Position numbers and translations under genes: made by a program
Notes under the pieces: model-generated
The model's input: only the letters and a program-made list of their open reading frames with translations
Database searches by the model: none
What the model was told of the DNA's origin: nothing
Shown here: positions 1,026-13,283 of the stretch, in pieces
Position numbering within the stretch: position 1 is the stretch's first letter
Layout: every line of letters begins with the position of its first letter
Source of the DNA: a virus
Virus record (IMG/VR): IMGVR_UViG_3300022934_000003
Direction: 5' to 3' (one strand)
DNA: 64,000 nucleotides

Positions 1026-1114
1026 ACAAAAAGTGTTACACTTATAAAACAAAGTGTAACATTGTTAACACAATATTACTTTTTAATAATATTGATTTAT
1101 ATATAAAAGTTTTT

Positions 1115-1210
1115 TTATTCTAATGTAAATAAAATTATAAGTCCAACCGCGGCTGCTATACCTGCTGCAACTGCAGTGAAAACTTCTTTCACTGTTAAAT
1201 GTTTATTCAT
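1115..1210 (-). CDS. 31-aa single-TM peptide
   Basis: MNKHLTVKEVFTAVAAGIAAAVGLIILFTLE; SD AAGGA. Confidence 0.5.
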   Translation of the reverse strand: MNKHLTVKEVFTAVAAGIAAAVGLIILFTLE

Positions 1211-1225
1211 TATATTTTCCTTTAT

Positions 1226-1648
1226 TTATAAAGTTACTTCAAGAGCTTTAAAAGCTTCTAATGTTAATTCCTCTTCTAATTCATATGCTTCCACTTCCCA
1301 AGGAGCATCATGGTAATTAATATCTTCATGAACTAATGTACCTTTCCAACGATGTACACCGCCAATAATTTCTTTTAATTCACCACGTGCATATTGTTTT
1401 ACATGAATCATTTCGTGTACAACAGTACCAATTAATTCATACAAAGACATACCTTTACAAATTTCCATTTCAAATTCGCGATTTGTATCACCCATGAGGC
1501 AGTATCCATAAGCATCACTATTTTTAATAGTGACATCGATTTCGATATTACGGATACGCGGCATGAGTTTATGGAGACACCATTCGACGGTAGATGTTAC
1601 GATTTCACGTTCTTTAGATTTTCCACCGACTACATTAATATATTTCAT
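1226..1648 (-). CDS. HEXXH zinc metallopeptidase-like protein
   Basis: TVVHEMIHVKQY and PWEVEAY motifs. Confidence 0.7.
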   Translation of the reverse strand: MKYINVVGGKSKEREIVTSTVEWCLHKLMPRIRNIEIDVTIKNSDAYGYCLMGDTNREFEMEICKGMSLYELIGTVVHEMIHVKQYARGELKEIIGGVHRWKGTLVHEDINYHDAPWEVEAYELEEELTLEAFKALEVTL

Positions 1649-1686
1649 TGTGTAATATTACCACTCTTTTTACCATTTATAGTAAT

Positions 1687-1715
1687 ATTATAACATGATT
1701 TTCAAAAAATGTCAA
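1687..1715 (-). promoter_or_regulatory. Sigma70 early promoter
   Basis: TTGACA-N17-TATAAT. Confidence 0.8.
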
Positions 1716-1743
1716 CCTTTTTTTGAAATAAAAAAGCCTTATA

Positions 1744-1756
1744 AATCAATAACTTG
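1744..1756. promoter_or_regulatory. IHF-consensus site
   Basis: AATCAATAACTTG matches WATCAANNNNTTR, 28 nt upstream of the -35 box. Confidence 0.55.
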
Positions 1757-1765
1757 GAAAAAATT

Positions 1766-2278
1766 TCAGTCTTTTTTAAGCTTTTTGCAGAGATTATCGT
1801 ATTTTGCTTGGTCAACAACACCTTCTGATAGCAATTTTTCACGATTTTTCATATGTTTGGCCTGTACATCGTCCTTAGAGCCACCAAAATAAGGAACACA
1901 ATGTCCTTCCTTAATCATGATTTCTGTGACTAATGTGGGGGTTGTCATGCCATTATAATCCATTGAAGTAATAGGATACTCAACATAAAAATCGCCAAGA
2001 ATACGACCAAATTTACCTTTCATATCTTCGCCATCTTTATCTTCAGTAGTAACTAATTGTCCACCATTTTTCAAAAGTTCTTTTAATCTATTTTTAGCAG
2101 CAATACCAAATAGTTTTTCTACTTTGTCGCTTGTGCGTGATTCTGGTGTGTCAATGCCCATAATTCTTACACGCTCATCGCGTAGCCAAACACCAAAACC
2201 AAGGTTGATGTTAACATCGACTGTATCACCATCTACTACTTTAATTAGTTCTACGTCATATCTATTTTGCTGTGCCAT
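1766..2278 (-). CDS. Thermonuclease (SNase-like) nuclease
   Basis: VVDGDTV, VRIMGIDTPES, GKFGRILG. Confidence 0.85.
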   Translation of the reverse strand: MAQQNRYDVELIKVVDGDTVDVNINLGFGVWLRDERVRIMGIDTPESRTSDKVEKLFGIAAKNRLKELLKNGGQLVTTEDKDGEDMKGKFGRILGDFYVEYPITSMDYNGMTTPTLVTEIMIKEGHCVPYFGGSKDDVQAKHMKNREKLLSEGVVDQAKYDNLCKKLKKD

Positions 2279-2289
2279 TTTTACTCCTA

Positions 2290-3012
2290 TTAAGTGTTAA
2301 TTTTTCTCCACCACCAACATAATCTGCTCATATCTTGAAAATGTCCGCCGGTCCAATTTTGCAAAAAAGTCTCGCCGACTTTTTCTAAATTATACGTAGC
2401 TTCCATATTATTAATAAATTCTTCATTCCAGCCGTCATCTTGTATTCTAGCTTTTACAAAAATCCAATCACTTGACATTTTAACAACATATTTTAATTCT
2501 TCTTCAATCCAAGTTTGATCATCGCTATTTAAAGAACCAATACAAACAAAAACATCAGCCGCATTATCTCCATACATTTCATGCGCTTCTTGTGAAGAAA
2601 TTACACGAGTATTATCATCAGCAAACCAATTGATATATTTGTTATCATATGTAGTCCAAATTTTTTCATCATCTGTACCACCAGCATCTGAAAATGGTTT
2701 TCTTTCTGATGTTAAACTTTTTTGAAGCTTCTCATAAAACTCAAATTGATTTAGTATATCTGCTTCTAAATTGCCGCCCATAAACTCATCCCAGCTTCCA
2801 TCACCACATAGACAATCTGCTCTTCCGTGAGCTCTGTGTGGTAACCAATAATAGTTTCCAGATTGAATAATTCTTGTTGGGTTTTTCTCAAAAATTTCAG
2901 TTAATACTTTTCCTTCCCAATTAATTTTTTTAGCCCAGGAAAATGAATCATCTGAATCTGATATGCCAATCAGCTCTTTAATTTCATTATCAGTATAATT
3001 AAATTCTGCCAT
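2290..3012 (-). CDS. Hypothetical protein, possibly a degenerate class I SAM methyltransferase fold
   Basis: 240-aa ORF; DVFVCIGSLN...IFVKAR resembles MTase C-terminal strands; no clear motif I. Confidence 0.45.
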   Translation of the reverse strand: MAEFNYTDNEIKELIGISDSDDSFSWAKKINWEGKVLTEIFEKNPTRIIQSGNYYWLPHRAHGRADCLCGDGSWDEFMGGNLEADILNQFEFYEKLQKSLTSERKPFSDAGGTDDEKIWTTYDNKYINWFADDNTRVISSQEAHEMYGDNAADVFVCIGSLNSDDQTWIEEELKYVVKMSSDWIFVKARIQDDGWNEEFINNMEATYNLEKVGETFLQNWTGGHFQDMSRLCWWWRKINT

Positions 3013-3020
3013 TTTTCTTA

Positions 3021-3461
3021 TTAATCATTAAGTGGATTGTCTAAAGCTTTTTGAATTCGATCTTCTAGATCTGTTTTTGTCGTTTCTAGTTTATTTTCAA
3101 AACGATCTAATTTAGTATCATAATTTTCTAATTTTGCTGTTACTTTTGTATCAATACGATACATATTTGTTTTAGCATCATTTAAGTTTGTTTCCATTGA
3201 TGATAAAAGTTTTTGTTGATTGTCAATCTTTTGGTCAATTAATTCCATGCGCTGTTCAAATGCACCTACATCAAGATTAGCAACTTCCTCAATCTTTTGA
3301 TACATTGTAAAACCTGCATATAACATACCAATAACAGAACCAAGACCAGCAATAGCCATACTTAATGTTGTAGGAGTCATCTTCAACCCCATTACATTAA
3401 ATGATTTGTCTTTAAGTCCTTCTAATTTTTCTAGCTCTTCGCCTAAATCTTTATCTGCCAT
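3021..3461 (-). CDS. Single-TM coiled-coil membrane protein
   Basis: Hydrophobic segment LSMAIAGLGSVIGMLYAGF followed by a long heptad region. Confidence 0.65.
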   Translation of the reverse strand: MADKDLGEELEKLEGLKDKSFNVMGLKMTPTTLSMAIAGLGSVIGMLYAGFTMYQKIEEVANLDVGAFEQRMELIDQKIDNQQKLLSSMETNLNDAKTNMYRIDTKVTAKLENYDTKLDRFENKLETTKTDLEDRIQKALDNPLND

Positions 3462-3479
3462 GATTTACCTTTCTAGTTT

Positions 3480-3668
3480 TCAATATCTTTTAATTCTAGT
3501 ACGTGGATATACAATAGGATTTTGTTTATTATATTCCCTTTGCCTTTCCACTTCTTCTTTTGTAAATTTACTGATATAAGATTGAGCACATTGAGATGCA
3601 ATAGAGTAGTTGGGCTCATATGAATCCCAACACCATTTTATTGCATCGTTAACGTTTGCAAAATCCAT
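3480..3668 (-). CDS. Hypothetical protein
   Basis: Abuts the upstream gene within the operon. Confidence 0.5.
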   Translation of the reverse strand: MDFANVNDAIKWCWDSYEPNYSIASQCAQSYISKFTKEEVERQREYNKQNPIVYPRTRIKRY

Positions 3669-4127
3669 TTAACTCTTTCCTAGATAGAATGAACCAGCCG
3701 CAAGAATAGAAATCTTAAGCCACTCAAATGCAACTACCGCGTTCTCTAGTCTTACAAACTCTGTAACTGTTTGTGTATTATCAAATAAACCTAGTAAATT
3801 AAATCCTTTTGTAACTTCTACAGGAACAACAATATCTAATCCTGTTAAACCAGCAGTCATTGCCCATGCACCCATTGCTAACATAGATAATACAAAGATA
3901 CGTCTTGTCATTTTAGCGAATGGATCATTACCCACTCTTTTTGCAGCTGCGTTTGCTGAATCTGTTGCTGCCTGTTTTCTCTTAGCATCATTCTCTGTCT
4001 CGGCATTCATCTTACCGATTAAAAGTTTTTGCTGTTCTGCTTTATTTTTTTGAGCTTGGTCCATGAACTTAAAAAGTCCACCCATTGCGGCGCCACCTGC
4101 CATTGTAATTAGTTCTACTGGAATCAT
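3669..4127 (-). CDS. Holin-like 3-TM membrane protein
   Basis: N-terminal Gly-rich hydrophobic helix, coiled linker, TRR-TM, C-terminal GSFYLG typical of 3TM holin-like proteins. Confidence 0.5.
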   Translation of the reverse strand: MIPVELITMAGGAAMGGLFKFMDQAQKNKAEQQKLLIGKMNAETENDAKRKQAATDSANAAAKRVGNDPFAKMTRRIFVLSMLAMGAWAMTAGLTGLDIVVPVEVTKGFNLLGLFDNTQTVTEFVRLENAVVAFEWLKISILAAGSFYLGKS

Positions 4128-5347: not shown

Positions 5348-5848
5348 TTATTGTGCTACGCAACTTGCTTCAACAAGTGCTGTGTAACTTCCACCTGGAA
5401 AAGCTTTTGAGCCTCCCATAACTGCTGTAGATGAAGTCTTAAACCAAGTACTTCCTGTTGCAGTTAAATCATACTTATCCGTCATATCAAATTCAATTTT
5501 ATTTGTTTCATAATCTGCCATATTTGTAGCGTCTGATACTGCAGATACTTCAGTATCGCCTGACCATGTTACCACGTCTGGTAAATTTGGTGCAGATGAA
5601 AAAGCACTTGGTGCAGTAAATTCTACATAATACGCATCAGCTAATGTAACGTCTACGCGTGTTACCGCTAGAACACCACCATCAGCTACTGCTGTTGTTA
5701 ACGTATAAGCATTAGGGTTACCATACACACCAGCTGTGTCGGTAGAAATAATGCATCTTGACTGTACACTACCATTAATTGGAGTATCAGCCGCCGCACT
5801 AGTAATCATACCTAATGTAGCAATTGTGATTAATGTTTTAATGAACAT
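5348..5848 (-). CDS. Secreted fimbrial/pilin-subunit-like protein
   Basis: Signal peptide; DTPINGSVQSRC N-terminal strand with Cys; Thr/Ser/Gly-rich; C-terminal FPGGSYTALVEASC resembles the final strand of pilin subunits. Confidence 0.55.
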   Translation of the reverse strand: MFIKTLITIATLGMITSAAADTPINGSVQSRCIISTDTAGVYGNPNAYTLTTAVADGGVLAVTRVDVTLADAYYVEFTAPSAFSSAPNLPDVVTWSGDTEVSAVSDATNMADYETNKIEFDMTDKYDLTATGSTWFKTSSTAVMGGSKAFPGGSYTALVEASCVAQ

Positions 5849-5891
5849 ATGTTCTCTCCTAACTAGTTATTTTTTTCTTATCATATATTCA

Positions 5892-6776
5892 TCATCTATA
5901 TTGCGCGTTGATCATTTCTTCGTGCAATTTTTGAGTGGACCAATTCAAACGTCTTCCACTCTTATTATCTGGAAGTTGCCCTCCATCTAATTTTACAGTT
6001 TCTTTATATGAACCACCAGGAATAGTACTATTGATATAACTAGTCATATTAACCTGATTATTCATTTGTTGTAGCATTAATCCTTGAGCTATTGACTCTG
6101 CAAATAAAGCGGAATTATCTGCTTCTGCTAATGCTTTTTCTAATCTTTCTTTTCTATCTTTCTCTTCTTTTTCTTCTGCTTCTGCTAATTCTTCTTCAGA
6201 CTTTTCTTCTTCTTCGTCATAATTTTCTTCTTTGTTATCTGTTTCTTCTTCCTCTACTTCAAACTGCTCATATAAAGAAGATACATCAATTTCTGGAGGT
6301 TTGGGTGGAATAAATCCTGGACAATTAACATTTGCTTGTGGATTATAACAAGGATCTACTTTATATGTGTAAATCACTGTTGCATCTTCAACCGTACCAT
6401 CACCAGTTGTATTTAAAAATCCATCTCCAAACTGAGAACGATGTACATAAGGTAGTGGAACATTCTTAATAATCGCAATTCCGCCTGGAGCTCCATCCCA
6501 ATTATCTGTTTCTTTCCAAACATAACCAGACTTATCAGCATTCCAGTTACCAATGTCTACTTCAAAATTGGAATTGGTTTCTTTTATTGGAGTGTAAGTA
6601 TAAAATACATTATTAATACTTGTTCCACTCGGATCAGGCAATACACTATCCATACTCCAAGGATTGCCATAATTCACAGCATTCCCCGTGAATCCGTAAT
6701 AAGGCTTTATAGATTCAGAATAAGAATAATAAGGCAGCAAGGCCACCAAGGCCGTAAGTAGCAGTTTCTTTAGCAT
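5892..6776 (-). CDS. Secreted protein with beta domain, Cys pair and acidic coiled-coil stalk
   Basis: Signal peptide; DPCYNPQANVNCPG; E/K-rich region. Confidence 0.7.
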   Translation of the reverse strand: MLKKLLLTALVALLPYYSYSESIKPYYGFTGNAVNYGNPWSMDSVLPDPSGTSINNVFYTYTPIKETNSNFEVDIGNWNADKSGYVWKETDNWDGAPGGIAIIKNVPLPYVHRSQFGDGFLNTTGDGTVEDATVIYTYKVDPCYNPQANVNCPGFIPPKPPEIDVSSLYEQFEVEEEETDNKEENYDEEEEKSEEELAEAEEKEEKDRKERLEKALAEADNSALFAESIAQGLMLQQMNNQVNMTSYINSTIPGGSYKETVKLDGGQLPDNKSGRRLNWSTQKLHEEMINAQYR

Positions 6777-7266
6777 TTAATTTCCCGTCTGAAATATCTA
6801 ACTCTTGTTGAGTTGTTTCTACATGTGTTTCCCAAGCTAATCTAGCTTCGTTACCAATCAATCCATTATACGGACAAGGAGTTCCGGCGTGCATCATAGC
6901 ATCAAAGACTTTCTGGTCTTGACACATAATAGATACAGCAGCGACTTTCATACCCATATCATACATAGTTTTAGCATTTTTAAGTCTAATACAATTTTCT
7001 TCGGTAAATGTTGTACCTGCTGAGATACCAAGAATTTGAGTTTGAACTGCACCTGCTACACCAATAGTACATAGGTCACTATTATTACCTGCACTAAATT
7101 GCGGTGAGATCGCAGATGGCGGTGGTTGCTTGATGGTTGTATTCATCGAGCCATTAGTCGTCACAGTGCTATCTGTGGTCGAAATTGTTTCGATCGGTTC
7201 TGCATTCACTGTGTTAATAAATAAAGACATAGCAAAACCAATCAATAATGCATAAAATTTATTCAT
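6715..7266 (-). CDS. Secreted Cys-rich protein with C-terminal membrane anchor
   Basis: Signal peptide; PPPSAISP, four Cys, AGTPCP; terminal GLGGLAALLFLF. Confidence 0.7.
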   Translation of the reverse strand: MNKFYALLIGFAMSLFINTVNAEPIETISTTDSTVTTNGSMNTTIKQPPPSAISPQFSAGNNSDLCTIGVAGAVQTQILGISAGTTFTEENCIRLKNAKTMYDMGMKVAAVSIMCQDQKVFDAMMHAGTPCPYNGLIGNEARLAWETHVETTQQELDISDGKLNAKETATYGLGGLAALLFLF

Positions 7267-7386: not shown

Positions 7387-8118
7387 ATGATTGAAAACTG
7401 TTCAAAAATGGCAAAAGCAGCACAAACTGCTTATTTAGATGGCAAACCGGCCAAGCCCGAATATAAAAAACTAGGGTATACAACACACAAATTTATTGAT
7501 ATTGATGGTGCTCAGTGTCATATTGTATCAAATAAAGATGAAGTTGTTTTATGTTTTAGAGGGACAGAACCTACAGAATTTTCTGATATTACAGCAGATT
7601 TAAATGCTTTTCCTGATAAAGCAAATAACGGACATGGATTAGTTCATAATGGATTTCAGGAAGAAGTTAATAAAGTATGGGATACTATTACAGCTTCATT
7701 AAATAAAATGAAACTTGATGGTAAAAATTTATTCGTTTGTGGACATTCACTTGGTGGTGCAATGGCTACAATCGCAACAAGTCGACTCGGTGATAAAGTT
7801 AATGCTTTATATACATATGGGTCGCCGAGAGTAGGAACAAGATCATTTGTTAAATCATTTGCTCAAATTCCTCACTATCGACACGTAAATAATAATGATA
7901 TGGTTACTAAAGTACCTTTTGCTTTAATGGGATATAAACATCACAGCAAAGCAAGATACATTAATTATTACGGTAATATTAGATCTCTTACACCTTGGCA
8001 AAGAATCAAGGATCAATGGAGAGGTCGTTGGGCAGCTCTTAAAAAAGGTTGTCCTTTTGATGGTGCATATGATCATAGTATGAAATATTATGTACAATAC
8101 ACCGAAGCGAATCAATGA
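7387..8118 (+). CDS. Class 3 lipase (alpha/beta hydrolase)
   Basis: FRGTE, VHNGF, GHSLGG nucleophile elbow, YGSPRVG, NNNDMVTKVP, DHSM. Confidence 0.9.
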   Translation: MIENCSKMAKAAQTAYLDGKPAKPEYKKLGYTTHKFIDIDGAQCHIVSNKDEVVLCFRGTEPTEFSDITADLNAFPDKANNGHGLVHNGFQEEVNKVWDTITASLNKMKLDGKNLFVCGHSLGGAMATIATSRLGDKVNALYTYGSPRVGTRSFVKSFAQIPHYRHVNNNDMVTKVPFALMGYKHHSKARYINYYGNIRSLTPWQRIKDQWRGRWAALKKGCPFDGAYDHSMKYYVQYTEANQ

Positions 8119-8664: not shown

Positions 8665-8698
8665 AAAAAAAGAGGGAGCTTAATTGCTCCCTTTTTTT
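8665..8698. terminator. Bidirectional intrinsic terminator
   Basis: A-run, GGGAGC-TTAATT-GCTCCC, T-run between convergent genes. Confidence 0.8.
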
Positions 8699-8909
8699 AT
8701 CTAATGTGAGGATCTATATGGTCGTCATTATAAACTTCATCTCCAAGCGCCCTGATTTTTCTGGCTAAACCATTATATCTAAATTGCCAAGTATCAGCTC
8801 TTTCTTTTTCAGCTTCATACTTTCCTTTCCAATCAGTTTTTTTAAATTTTTCTGCTTGAAGTTTCCACCAGTTTTTTAAACTTGCCATATTATACTCCTT
8901 TAAACACAA
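8697..8909 (-). CDS. Hypothetical coiled-coil protein (likely start MASLKN at 8888)
   Basis: SD AGGAG precedes ATG at 8888. Confidence 0.55.
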   Translation of the reverse strand: MCLKEYNMASLKNWWKLQAEKFKKTDWKGKYEAEKERADTWQFRYNGLARKIRALGDEVYNDDHIDPHIR

Positions 8910-9193
8910 CCTGTGGGTTTAGGCAAACCACCATATTTAGTAATTGGTTTCATGGGACCTGTCATCCACATTTTGAATACTTCTTTTTTATCCATACCAA
9001 TTGCCTTTGCAAAATTACGAATAGCAGGAACAGCTGATGTATCCTCATAGATTTCTCTTGCTTTCATAATATGCTCAATTTTTTCATCAGTTAGTTCATA
9101 TCCATCTTCTTCTGCCATTGCATTCATAACATCGACAGACCATTCTGACATATCTAACAAATAACCGTCACCATCTCTTTCTGGTAAACTCAT
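8900..9193 (-). CDS. dsrC: DsrC/TusE-family sulfur relay protein, single C-terminal Cys
   Basis: RDGDGYL...W...MA..DG.ELT...P..R...GP...GLPKPTGCV. Confidence 0.85.
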   Translation of the reverse strand: MSLPERDGDGYLLDMSEWSVDVMNAMAEEDGYELTDEKIEHIMKAREIYEDTSAVPAIRNFAKAIGMDKKEVFKMWMTGPMKPITKYGGLPKPTGCV

Positions 9194-9225: not shown

Positions 9226-9516
9226 TTATACTTCTTCAGTTGGTTTAAATTCTATTAACATATTTTTAAGATATGGATCACAACCTTTATCTTCTAATCT
9301 TGTCATCAACCACATCTCAAATGAGTCTTTGTCCTCGAATGTTCTTTTAAAGTAGAAGGTCTCGTTGGGTAACTCTCTTTCGAAAGATACCACAACAGGA
9401 CCAGCATATACATCTTTGATAAACATTACAGCTACAACGACATATGCAATTACCCCCATTAGCAATGCCGCTGCCCAACCTGGACAATTCTTTTCGTTAC
9501 AGCTTGAACCTATCAT
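9226..9516 (-). CDS. Hypothetical single-TM protein
   Basis: TM WAAALLMGVIAYVVVAVMF; SD GGAG. Confidence 0.6.
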   Translation of the reverse strand: MIGSSCNEKNCPGWAAALLMGVIAYVVVAVMFIKDVYAGPVVVSFERELPNETFYFKRTFEDKDSFEMWLMTRLEDKGCDPYLKNMLIEFKPTEEV

Positions 9517-9530
9517 AGATTTCTCCTATA

Positions 9531-9815
9531 TTACTTCTCTTGTACAGGGAAGTTGTAGTATGGTGATGCATAACCATAATTTTTATATGGATTATGCTGA
9601 TAAGATACAACGTAATCTGGATCGTCAACTTCGTTAATCATATTTACAAATTCAGTTGGATACCAACGTGGATCCATCATTGAATATGGATTAAACGAAA
9701 AGATACCGTTATCTTCTACATAACCATAGTTGTTGTTATTAAAAGGGCCAAAATCAAATGCTGAAGCAGTTGAAACGGCTGTTGCCATAATTGTTGCTAA
9801 TGCTAGCTTTTTCAT
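9531..9815 (-). CDS. Secreted sulfur-globule-protein-like protein
   Basis: Signal ending TASA-F; Asn/Gly/Tyr/Pro-rich low complexity; EDNGIFSFNPY..DPRWY core. Confidence 0.55.
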   Translation of the reverse strand: MKKLALATIMATAVSTASAFDFGPFNNNNYGYVEDNGIFSFNPYSMMDPRWYPTEFVNMINEVDDPDYVVSYQHNPYKNYGYASPYYNFPVQEK

Positions 9816-9927
9816 ATCTATTCTCCTATTAAGAATTAAATGATGCTCTTAAAGAGCGGGTTATAATAATTACGCTACTAGAGCGATTTTTTTACATGTT
9901 AGATAATCTAACTATGTTTGTTACTTT

Positions 9928-9935
9928 TATTTATA
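9928..9935 (-). promoter_or_regulatory. Late promoter TATAAATA
   Basis: Exact consensus upstream of the sgp-like/dsrC cluster. Confidence 0.6.
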
Positions 9936-10014: not shown

Positions 10015-10257
10015 TTAAGCGATAAACCAGCGATAGATTCCGAAAATATCTATCCAAAGAAAGAAAAAGTTTTGTGCAAACATTGGCCAATCTTTTTCTC
10101 TTGCAAAATATAATGATAGTAGTACATGTCCTACTAAGAACATCCAGAATCCCCATCGTGAAGATTCTATATTTGCTGAGAGGATAGTCCCAGCACTTAA
10201 AAACATTATTGTTGCTGTCCATTTTGCAAATGACTCATTCATTATAAGCTTGGTCAT
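10015..10257 (-). CDS. 3-TM PnuC-like small membrane protein
   Basis: KW.AT...G......N....GF..FLVG...W...AQN.F...ID..GIYRW pattern. Confidence 0.55.
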   Translation of the reverse strand: MTKLIMNESFAKWTATIMFLSAGTILSANIESSRWGFWMFLVGHVLLSLYFAREKDWPMFAQNFFFLWIDIFGIYRWFIA

Positions 10258-11208: not shown

Positions 11209-11246
11209 TATAGTTATATTATACACTAGTTCTAAGAAGATGTCAA
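11209..11246 (-). promoter_or_regulatory. Conserved 38-bp early promoter, copy 1
   Basis: TTGACATCTTCTTAGAACTAGTGTATAATATAACTATA. Confidence 0.9.
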
Positions 11247-11839: not shown

Positions 11840-11916
11840 TGGTGGGCCCACTAGGATTTGAACCTAGGACCAATGGATTATGAGTCCACTGCTCTAACCA
11901 ACTGAGCTATAGGCCC
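11840..11916 (-). tRNA. tRNA with CAU anticodon, probably tRNA-Ile2 (lysidine type)
   Basis: GGGCCTATAGCTCAGTTGG...CTCATAA...GGTTCAAATCC...GGCCCACCA; lacks initiator features. Confidence 0.9.
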
Positions 11917-13125: not shown

Positions 13126-13201
13126 TGGACTTGGTGACAGGACTCGAACCTGCATAGAACGGATTTGCAATCCGATGCATAACCAATTCTGCCACACCAA
13201 G
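13126..13201 (-). tRNA. tRNA-Cys(GCA)
   Basis: CTTGGTG/CACCAAG acceptor, anticodon loop TTGCAAA, GGTTCGAGTCC, U73 discriminator, CCA. Confidence 0.9.
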
Positions 13202-13205
13202 AATT

Positions 13206-13283
13206 TGGCCTCGCCGGGAGGACTCGAACCTCCAACCTACAGCTTAGAAGGCTGTTGCTTCTATCCGCTTGAGCTACGGCGAG
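13206..13283 (-). tRNA. tRNA-Arg(UCU)
   Basis: CTCGCCG/CGGCGAG acceptor, anticodon loop CTTCTAA, GGTTCGAGTCC, CCA. Confidence 0.9.

Follow-up and report, generated by a model that had tools for sequence, protein, structure and literature searches.

A secreted protein of a T4-like phage belongs to a SUP05 protein family with sulfur globule protein-like members

SUP05 bacteria are the dominant sulfur oxidisers and dark carbon fixers of oxygen-minimum zones, vent plumes and many animal symbioses, and dsrA, dsrC and sox genes have previously been described from their phages. The dissimilatory sulfur genes known from viruses comprise dsrA, dsrC/tusE, soxC and soxD, as well as soxYZ (PMC8190135; Anantharaman 2014, Roux 2014, Kieft 2021). 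The SUP05 bacterium Ca. Thioglobus autotrophicus stores elemental sulfur (S0) in periplasmic globules (PMC6509183). A 64,000-nucleotide stretch of viral DNA (IMG/VR record IMGVR_UViG_3300022934_000003, referred to as the window) raises the question of whether a phage could also act on such a store. It contains, near a dsrC-like gene, a small ORF (9531–9815, minus strand) that a preliminary description assigned to a protein like the sulfur globule proteins (Sgp).

The secreted protein and its phage

The ORF and the parts of its product are as follows.

9531–9815, minus strand: ORF for a secreted phage protein of 94 aa, a short homolog of the SUP05 family termed family X below (Sgp-CV1-like)
9759–9815, minus strand: Sec signal peptide, residues 1–19, with predicted cleavage between A-S-A and F, read from the sequence and alignments
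9621–9722, minus strand: conserved family core, residues 32–65, Y-x-E-D-N-G-I-F … D-P-R-W-Y … N-M-x-N-E-x-D-D
9534–9620, minus strand: short Y/N/P-rich tail ending F-P-V-Q-E-K, corresponding in reduced form to the long repeat tails that the host proteins have

The signal peptide, as read from the sequence, is made up of MKK, a hydrophobic stretch and A-S-A followed by F. Alignments show that its n, h and c regions and an AxA site followed by F or W are kept across the homologs, which bears out the signal peptide ending in ASA-F that had been described. The mature chain is 75 aa long, contains no cysteine and is acidic, with a net charge of about −7. Measured against the window's proteins as background, the residues N (14.7% vs 6.6%), Y (14.7% vs 4.5%), P (10.7% vs 3.7%) and also F (9.3% vs 4.7%) are over-represented in it, but glycine (5.3% vs 6.7%) is not, and a repeat unit is lacking; the earlier characterisation as N/G/Y/P-rich thus holds for N, Y and P and fails for G. 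The same description had called the mature chain low-complexity, which did not stand up, as its sequence entropy lies at the 12th percentile of the background (mildly low-complexity only) and it holds a conserved, non-repetitive core (DNGIF-x-FNPY-x3-DPRWY-x-TEF-x-NM-x-NE). Enrichment in N, Y, P and F combined with only mildly lowered entropy indicates a chain that is compositionally biased and not a repeat.

The ORF has no match in Pfam, NCBIfam or PHROGs. Of the cluster representatives related to it, 9 are close and about 30 are more distant, and 24 alignment columns are invariant; the core columns are invariant in the close alignment and near-invariant in the wider one. Close homologs end in F-P-V-A-P-V-A-K, whereas the phage protein itself ends in FPVQEK. 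Close viral pairs of the gene have dN/dS values of 0.15–0.19. Judged from its sequence, the ORF encodes a real protein of about 75 aa that is predicted to be exported by the Sec system to the periplasm.

A chance ORF of low complexity was also considered and is ruled out by the conserved core and the dN/dS values.

AlphaFold2, run with the family alignment, predicts a mostly disordered protein (pLDDT 55) with helices in the signal peptide (residues 3–14) and in the core (residues 51–64), and pLDDT reaches 73–74 solely in the core part. Such a mostly disordered chain with one helix is as expected for a structural coat protein.

The window is T4-like, encoding topoisomerase II subunits, a gp43-type polymerase, gp46/47, UvsY and baseplate hub and wedge proteins, together with a weak match to a gp55-like sigma factor. 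It also carries three phage tRNA genes.

11840–11916, minus strand: tRNA-Met(cat)
13126–13201, minus strand: tRNA-Cys(gca)
13206–13283, minus strand: tRNA-Arg(tct)

At least 23 contigs, drawn from many assemblies and up to 216,746 bp long, encode a protein identical to the product of the ORF, and the source phage has the genome of a T4-like myovirus, about 217 kb in size. Genes of this kind (termed sgp-like here) are present in T4-like and in unrelated phage contigs, and in a phylogenetic tree the window protein falls in a clade of viral and metagenome sequences only, with support of 99/99.

These data bear on the possibility of a host fragment that is carried along passively (a moron) and is of no benefit to the phage. 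The gene is small, has no detectable domain and is shorter than the host copies, and a tblastn search of 50,697 reference phages (INPHARED) returned chance matches only, the gene being absent from the reference SUP05 phages, all of which would suit passive carriage. The dN/dS values, by contrast, argue for a selected function, as do the age and diversification of the viral-only clade with its invariant core, the spread over T4-like and unrelated phages, the identical protein on the many contigs noted above, and the intact signal peptide and Shine-Dalgarno sequence. Passive carriage is hence considered very unlikely.

In three viral loci the encoded proteins, of 133–137 aa, contain two tandem cores, reflecting an internal duplication (L061 and L062, 6001–6411; L066, 6001–6399).

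Family X in SUP05 bacteria and its relation to sulfur globule proteins

Searches starting from the phage protein led to a secreted family of SUP05 bacteria, which is here named family X. Using phmmer, 30 cluster representatives were found with E-values from 3e-24 to 6e-4, and a tblastn scan of 185,579 species genomes returned 40 loci, nearly all labelled as SUP05-clade and the others mostly carrying generic labels, the E-values between the phage protein and host loci being about 1e-17 to 1e-4. The SUP05-clade loci belong to Ca. Thioglobus, Ruthturnera, Vesicomyosocius, Thiodubiliella and Bathymodiolus symbionts. One locus, L006, lies on a 7,066-bp contig (CAZEKF010000031.1) of a MAG labelled ‘Methanosarcinales archaeon’; its copy is of the viral type and groups with IMG/VR sequences in the tree, and the contig is probably that of a phage mis-binned into an archaeal MAG.

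Family X proteins are built from a signal peptide, an N-rich stretch, an acidic-aromatic core with one helix and a tail of aromatic/N/G/P repeats, the core following the pattern D-N-G-[IF]-[FI]-x-[YF]-N-x(4-8)-P-R-W-[YF]-x2-E-x2-N-x3-E. The phage protein has the signal peptide, the N-rich start and the conserved core, all shared with host members of the type of Rmag_0508 of Ca. Ruthia magnifica (UniProt A1AWF5), and by these features is an unambiguous member of the family. The viral copies differ from the host proteins in reading S/Q-T/E-E-F-T-N-M where the latter have E-E-M-S-N-M, and in the tail that follows the core, whose median length is 24.5 aa in viral and 47 aa in host proteins (p 2e-4). 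There is a single copy in the reduced clam symbionts, and tandem secreted N/G/W/P-rich paralogs in free-living Thioglobus. A third host architecture (L033, L034, L037, L043 and L044) is tailless, with the core at the very C-terminus; here the signal peptide is followed by an unrelated stretch of 50–70 aa starting D-F-H…Y-D-W-N-N-D.

Within the order, the family X profile matches 72 of 122 genomes, with E-values down to 4e-35. All of these are among the 78 genomes with soxB (72/78) and none among the 44 that lack it (0/44), and 67 of the 72 also have dsrA; this co-distribution is a single clade-level pattern that does not separate phylogeny from function. The host locus is conserved, in the order ribBA-ribH-nusB, metH, family X, ssb, MFS and bamD, and contains no sulfur genes between metH and ssb. 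The latter observation would suit a family of SUP05 periplasmic or envelope proteins unrelated to globules, belonging to the outer membrane, S-layer or peptidoglycan, in which case the phage copy could serve in envelope remodelling or masking, for example in superinfection exclusion or lysis timing. The confinement of the family to the sulfur-oxidising part of the order speaks against such a role.

Whether the phage protein is itself a canonical Sgp was examined with Pfam PF17228 (SGP), which represents the SgpA/B type and has a gathering score of 26.7 bits. As a positive control, this profile matches 52 of 401 sampled other Gammaproteobacteria, usually with several paralogs per genome, and 12 SGPs from PF17228-positive Gammaproteobacteria were taken as the canonical reference set. 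The profile gives no match to the phage protein at E<=1, no match to 17 host family X homologs even at E<=10, and none in the order's 122 genomes. Aligning the phage family with the 12 canonical SGPs by hhalign pairs the signal peptides and nothing else, and an HMM of mature SGPs gives the phage protein −0.1 bits (z of 0.7 relative to shuffles). For the phage protein itself, the comparison of profiles with Sgp proteins that the preliminary description had put forward as a check therefore came out negative, and the outcome it had named as refuting, a lack of similarity to the Sgp proteins of sulfur oxidisers, applies at this direct level.

The likenesses to SgpA/SgpB (CV1/CV2) of Allochromatium vinosum are of a general kind. 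The phage protein resembles them in its Sec signal, cleavage after AxA and before W/F, aromatic-rich chain and lack of cysteine, and also in a mature size of about 8–11 kDa and a predicted periplasmic location; as in PF17228-type proteins, a cleavable Sec signal would release a small mature periplasmic protein. It differs in having a unique conserved acidic core (DNGIF…DPRWY…NM-x-DEFD) where SgpA/SgpB have the GWGDGxGD…DFSMSF centre, in having Asn and not Gly as the dominant small residue, and in a tail cut to about 25 aa, and its association with globules is putative. Regular Gly/Tyr tandem repeats and a PVAPxAPAAK-type C-terminus are absent from it. The A. vinosum Sgps have been described as ‘extremely hydrophobic’ (PMC10386293), in contrast to the acidic mature chain of the phage protein.

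True membership of the canonical SgpA/B (CV1/CV2, PF17228) type, as the UniProt names of the host relatives would have it, could appeal to those names and to the shared architecture, with F/W at position +1, a chain rich in aromatic residues and, in close homologs, an end of the PVAPxAK type. Set against the missing PF17228 matches of phage and host proteins, the hhalign alignment limited to the signal peptide, the mature-SGP score, the absence of Gly/Tyr tandem repeats and the unenriched glycine, such membership is extremely improbable.

Among rejected candidates, canonical PF17228 identity of the phage protein is largely refuted by Pfam, hhalign and the mature-SGP HMM.

The host members of family X come closer to Sgp proteins. 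They have a signal peptide, an F/W-W start, a G/N-aromatic stretch and an acidic centre, followed by a C-terminal part of GYG/PYG repeats and an APVAPAAPxAPAK end; this repeat region and end, and the presence of several paralogs per genome, are like those of SgpA/SgpB. Their tails score 20–28 bits against the mature-SGP HMM, with a median z of 5.2 over composition-preserving shuffles, and the match spans the C-terminal module GYG-x-NPY…APVAPAAPVAPAK. The segments that match are of low complexity, and their similarity could have arisen by convergence. In UniRef, Rmag_0508 and three symbiont proteins carry the automatic name ‘Sulfur globule protein CV1’, and among named ESM clusters those closest to Rmag_0508 are PF17228 SGP (0.85, 172 shared features), which is a lead only. 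The earlier designation of the phage protein as Sgp-like thus survives in part: direct similarity to Sgp is lacking, whilst the protein is a homolog of a family whose host members have SGP-like tails.

On these grounds we infer that family X may be one type of sulfur globule envelope (Sgp-like) protein of SUP05. The SGP-like tails, the SGP names and the SGP-like language-model neighbours of its host members weigh against an envelope function unrelated to globules, for which the missing Pfam SGP match can be cited in turn.

A second SUP05-specific secreted family, family Y, consists of proteins of 171–196 aa (L109, L110, L081 and L090) that contain a DSDWGFHYNNKN motif as well as GSN-x-GPF and ADAYAKG repeats. 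In strain EF1, four family Y paralogs stand in tandem beside icd (L109, G090:C1:132500-137500, 1061–4022; L110, 1001–1516). Like family X proteins, these are tandem paralogs that are secreted and specific to SUP05, and their signal peptide and N-rich start are similar; the overlap between the two families is limited to that portion (profile positions 3–47, E 1e-8 to 1e-5); unlike family X, they lack the family X core, have Ala/Lys-rich heptad-like repeats and, in the accessible part of the proteome data, are highly abundant in EF1.

EF1 loci were tied to that part of Dataset S1 of Shah et al. 2019 by exact matches of the protein lengths of ssb, metH and the HIT protein and of the ssb peptides. 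In it, the family Y proteins SP60_00725/30/35 are among the most abundant EF1 proteins (813, 646 and 311 spectral counts). The family X genes of EF1 lie between SP60_00050 and SP60_00100, in the ssb/metH region, where the accessible data contain a neighbouring 145-aa paralog alone, weakly detected with 5 spectral counts. The core-bearing EF1 proteins of 111 and 143 aa have nearly no tryptic sites, so their absence from the proteome means little. In these data family Y, but not family X, counts among the abundant proteins of EF1, which would nevertheless fit a family X unconnected with globules. The putative Sgp of Shah et al. 2019, as far as the accessible part of that source goes, is probably family Y (SP60_00725/30/35) and not X, because ‘four putative sgp, three detected’ fits Y better. 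Families X and Y are both likely candidates for the non-canonical globule proteins of SUP05, in which canonical SGP was not found. Their putative role in globules is addressable in cultured Ca. Thioglobus autotrophicus EF1.

Sulfur genes beside the viral copies and a proposed role

On the minus strand of the window the ORF is followed by a 96-aa ORF and then by the DsrC-family gene, as had been stated in placing it two genes upstream of dsrC. Together with a further small ORF these form a four-gene unit closed by a hairpin, and secreted and membrane proteins lie on either side of it.

9226–9516, minus strand: N-terminally membrane-anchored protein of 96 aa, phage-only, between the sgp-like gene and dsrC
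8900–9193, minus strand: DsrC/TusE-family sulfur-relay protein of the single-cysteine class (Pfam DsrC 9.6e-22, TIGR03342 1e-18)
8697–8909, minus strand: ORF of 70 aa, last gene of the unit, also called in L111
8673–8692, minus strand: terminator-like hairpin and T-run closing the four-gene unit
7387–8118, plus strand: class-3 lipase flanking the sulfur unit (Pfam Lipase_3 1.6e-23)
6715–7266, minus strand: secreted protein of 183 aa flanking the sulfur unit (phrog_20531)
10015–10257, minus strand: membrane ORF of 80 aa weakly matching the nicotinamide mononucleotide transporter PnuC at its C-terminal end (E 0.008)

The 80-aa membrane ORF may be a remnant or mini-version of PnuC. The 96-aa protein has 36 unnamed metagenome relatives and adjoins the sgp-like gene also in L046 and L111, and no host copy of it was found in 5 SUP05 genomes. 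The window dsrC is 70.7% identical in nucleotides to the dsrC of the SUP05 podophage Lau218 over a 174-nt aligned segment. The C-terminus of its product (…T-K-Y-G-G-L-P-K-P-T-G-C-V) has Thr at the first conserved Cys position, so that the C-x10-C cysteine pair that marks DsrC sensu stricto is absent. The single-Cys class is TusE-like and accounts for most of viral DsrC, and its role in dissimilatory sulfur oxidation has not been validated (Kieft et al. 2021, PMC8190135).

Comparable arrangements occur in other viral loci. Of 28 IMG/VR loci with an sgp-like gene, 8 have dsrC within 6 kb. In L063/64 (L063, 6001–7041) and L051 (5989–7001) the sgp-like gene is followed by TusA (PF01206, 5e-26) and then by a two-Cys DsrC, and TusA also comes after the sgp-like gene in L067/69, L059 and L060. 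Family Y takes part in such arrangements as well: L138–140 have the order DUF3050, an X-like gene, a 101-aa ORF and dsrC, with a shortened family Y homolog 1.9 kb further on, which in L139 (10137–10550) encodes 137 aa with 44% identity to the EF1 protein (E 9e-33), and L137 has dsrC, a Y-like gene (5682–6029) and tusA. These shortened phage homologs of family Y, each less than 2 kb from a viral dsrC, are candidates for a second ‘viral sgp’; the window itself contains no family Y homolog. In L069 (3499–4078) an Amt ammonium transporter gene (390 aa) lies between dsrC and the sgp-like gene.

Taken together, the arrangements of X, Y, TusA and DsrC indicate that phage sulfur islands combine these genes in several ways, and the recurrent linkage with dsrC, tusA and a second secreted family supports a role in sulfur metabolism. 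A family X envelope protein without any connection to globules would require the proximity to dsrC to be no more than that of neighbours in a hypervariable island of host-derived genes. Consistent with this, the neighbours in the window include the lipase and other secreted or membrane proteins, and most viral loci with close relatives of the window's DsrC have no family X gene (only 3 of 35 have one within 8 kb). The direct adjacency to tusA and dsrC, however, recurs with diverged partners, and family X co-occurs with family Y. With the host locus, the taxonomic distribution and the proteome data also weighed, a function in the envelope apart from globules is judged somewhat unlikely.

The reading to which we give roughly even weight, based on these comparisons, is that the ORF encodes a periplasmic, shortened version of a SUP05 globule-coat-type protein, which would modify the S0 store alongside the sulfur carriers of the phage. 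During infection the protein would be exported to the periplasm, where the S0 globules are located, and would dock on the globule coat through its conserved core, lacking most of the lattice-forming tail. It could thereby keep or make the stored sulfur accessible, either by standing in for host coat protein whose synthesis has ceased or by loosening the coat. The released S0 would feed the cytoplasmic oxidation route through TusA, DsrC and DsrAB, which the same phage lineages would boost with carrier genes of their own, yielding energy for phage replication. A more specific proposal, which is rather doubtful, is that the shortened coat proteins (X and, in some phages, Y) encoded next to TusA and DsrC form a phage module directed at the periplasm, whose members would act as coat-opening or capping factors that release S0 on demand.

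Like the viral dsr and sox genes, the phage family X gene is host-derived, under purifying selection and clustered with dsrC and tusA, and the proposed benefit, faster use of reduced or stored sulfur, would be the same. It is unlike them in that its product is neither an enzyme nor a sulfur carrier, having no cysteine, and family X is absent from the list of known viral dissimilatory sulfur genes (PMC8190135). As a host-derived gene retained under purifying selection in a bona fide phage genome, it has the properties of an auxiliary metabolic gene, and that it represents a new type of sulfur auxiliary gene is plausible, the arguments for and against being about evenly matched. The searchable literature yielded no report of a viral sgp, and a single-protein scan together with tblastn, both of limited sensitivity, found no canonical SGP in viruses.

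If the proposed role is correct, viral auxiliary metabolism would extend from enzymes and carriers to the storage compartment, and this would be the first such viral gene to act in the periplasm on the sulfur store itself, as well as the first viral auxiliary gene to target the protein envelope around a storage inclusion of bacteria. The non-canonical globule coat used by SUP05, a globally abundant clade, would also have been identified, providing an entry point to how stored S0 leaves the globules.

Leader and promoters of the four-gene unit

The sgp-like gene is preceded by a structured leader.

9816–9935, minus strand: 5' leader with the Shine-Dalgarno sequence AGGAGA (9827–9822), three predicted hairpins and TATAAATA (9935–9928)

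The AGGAGA sequence sits 6 nt before the ATG. The motif TATAAATA at 9935–9928 on the minus strand matches the T4-type late promoter consensus and lies 113 nt upstream of the sgp-like gene, and no terminator-like site is found between the start of this gene and the 8692–8673 hairpin. The ORF and dsrC had been placed behind the same late promoter, which is not demonstrable. The late motif is no commoner in the window than expected (11 occurrences vs 16.7 expected), a second copy of it occurs at 9230–9223, just ahead of dsrC, and the 199-bp spacer upstream of the sgp-like gene also holds a sigma-70-like site (10/12). Since the motif is not enriched, the timing of transcription is not readable from the sequence.

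The leader has a minimum free energy of −22.3 kcal/mol (z −3.0 vs shuffles), and the last of its three hairpins includes the Shine-Dalgarno sequence of the sgp-like gene. Two perfect sigma-70 promoters (12/12, TTGACA-17-TATAAT) are found at 11246–11218 and 10511–10483, both on the minus strand and both preceding small ORFs just upstream of the sgp-like unit, which suggests that those small ORFs may be transcribed early by the host polymerase.
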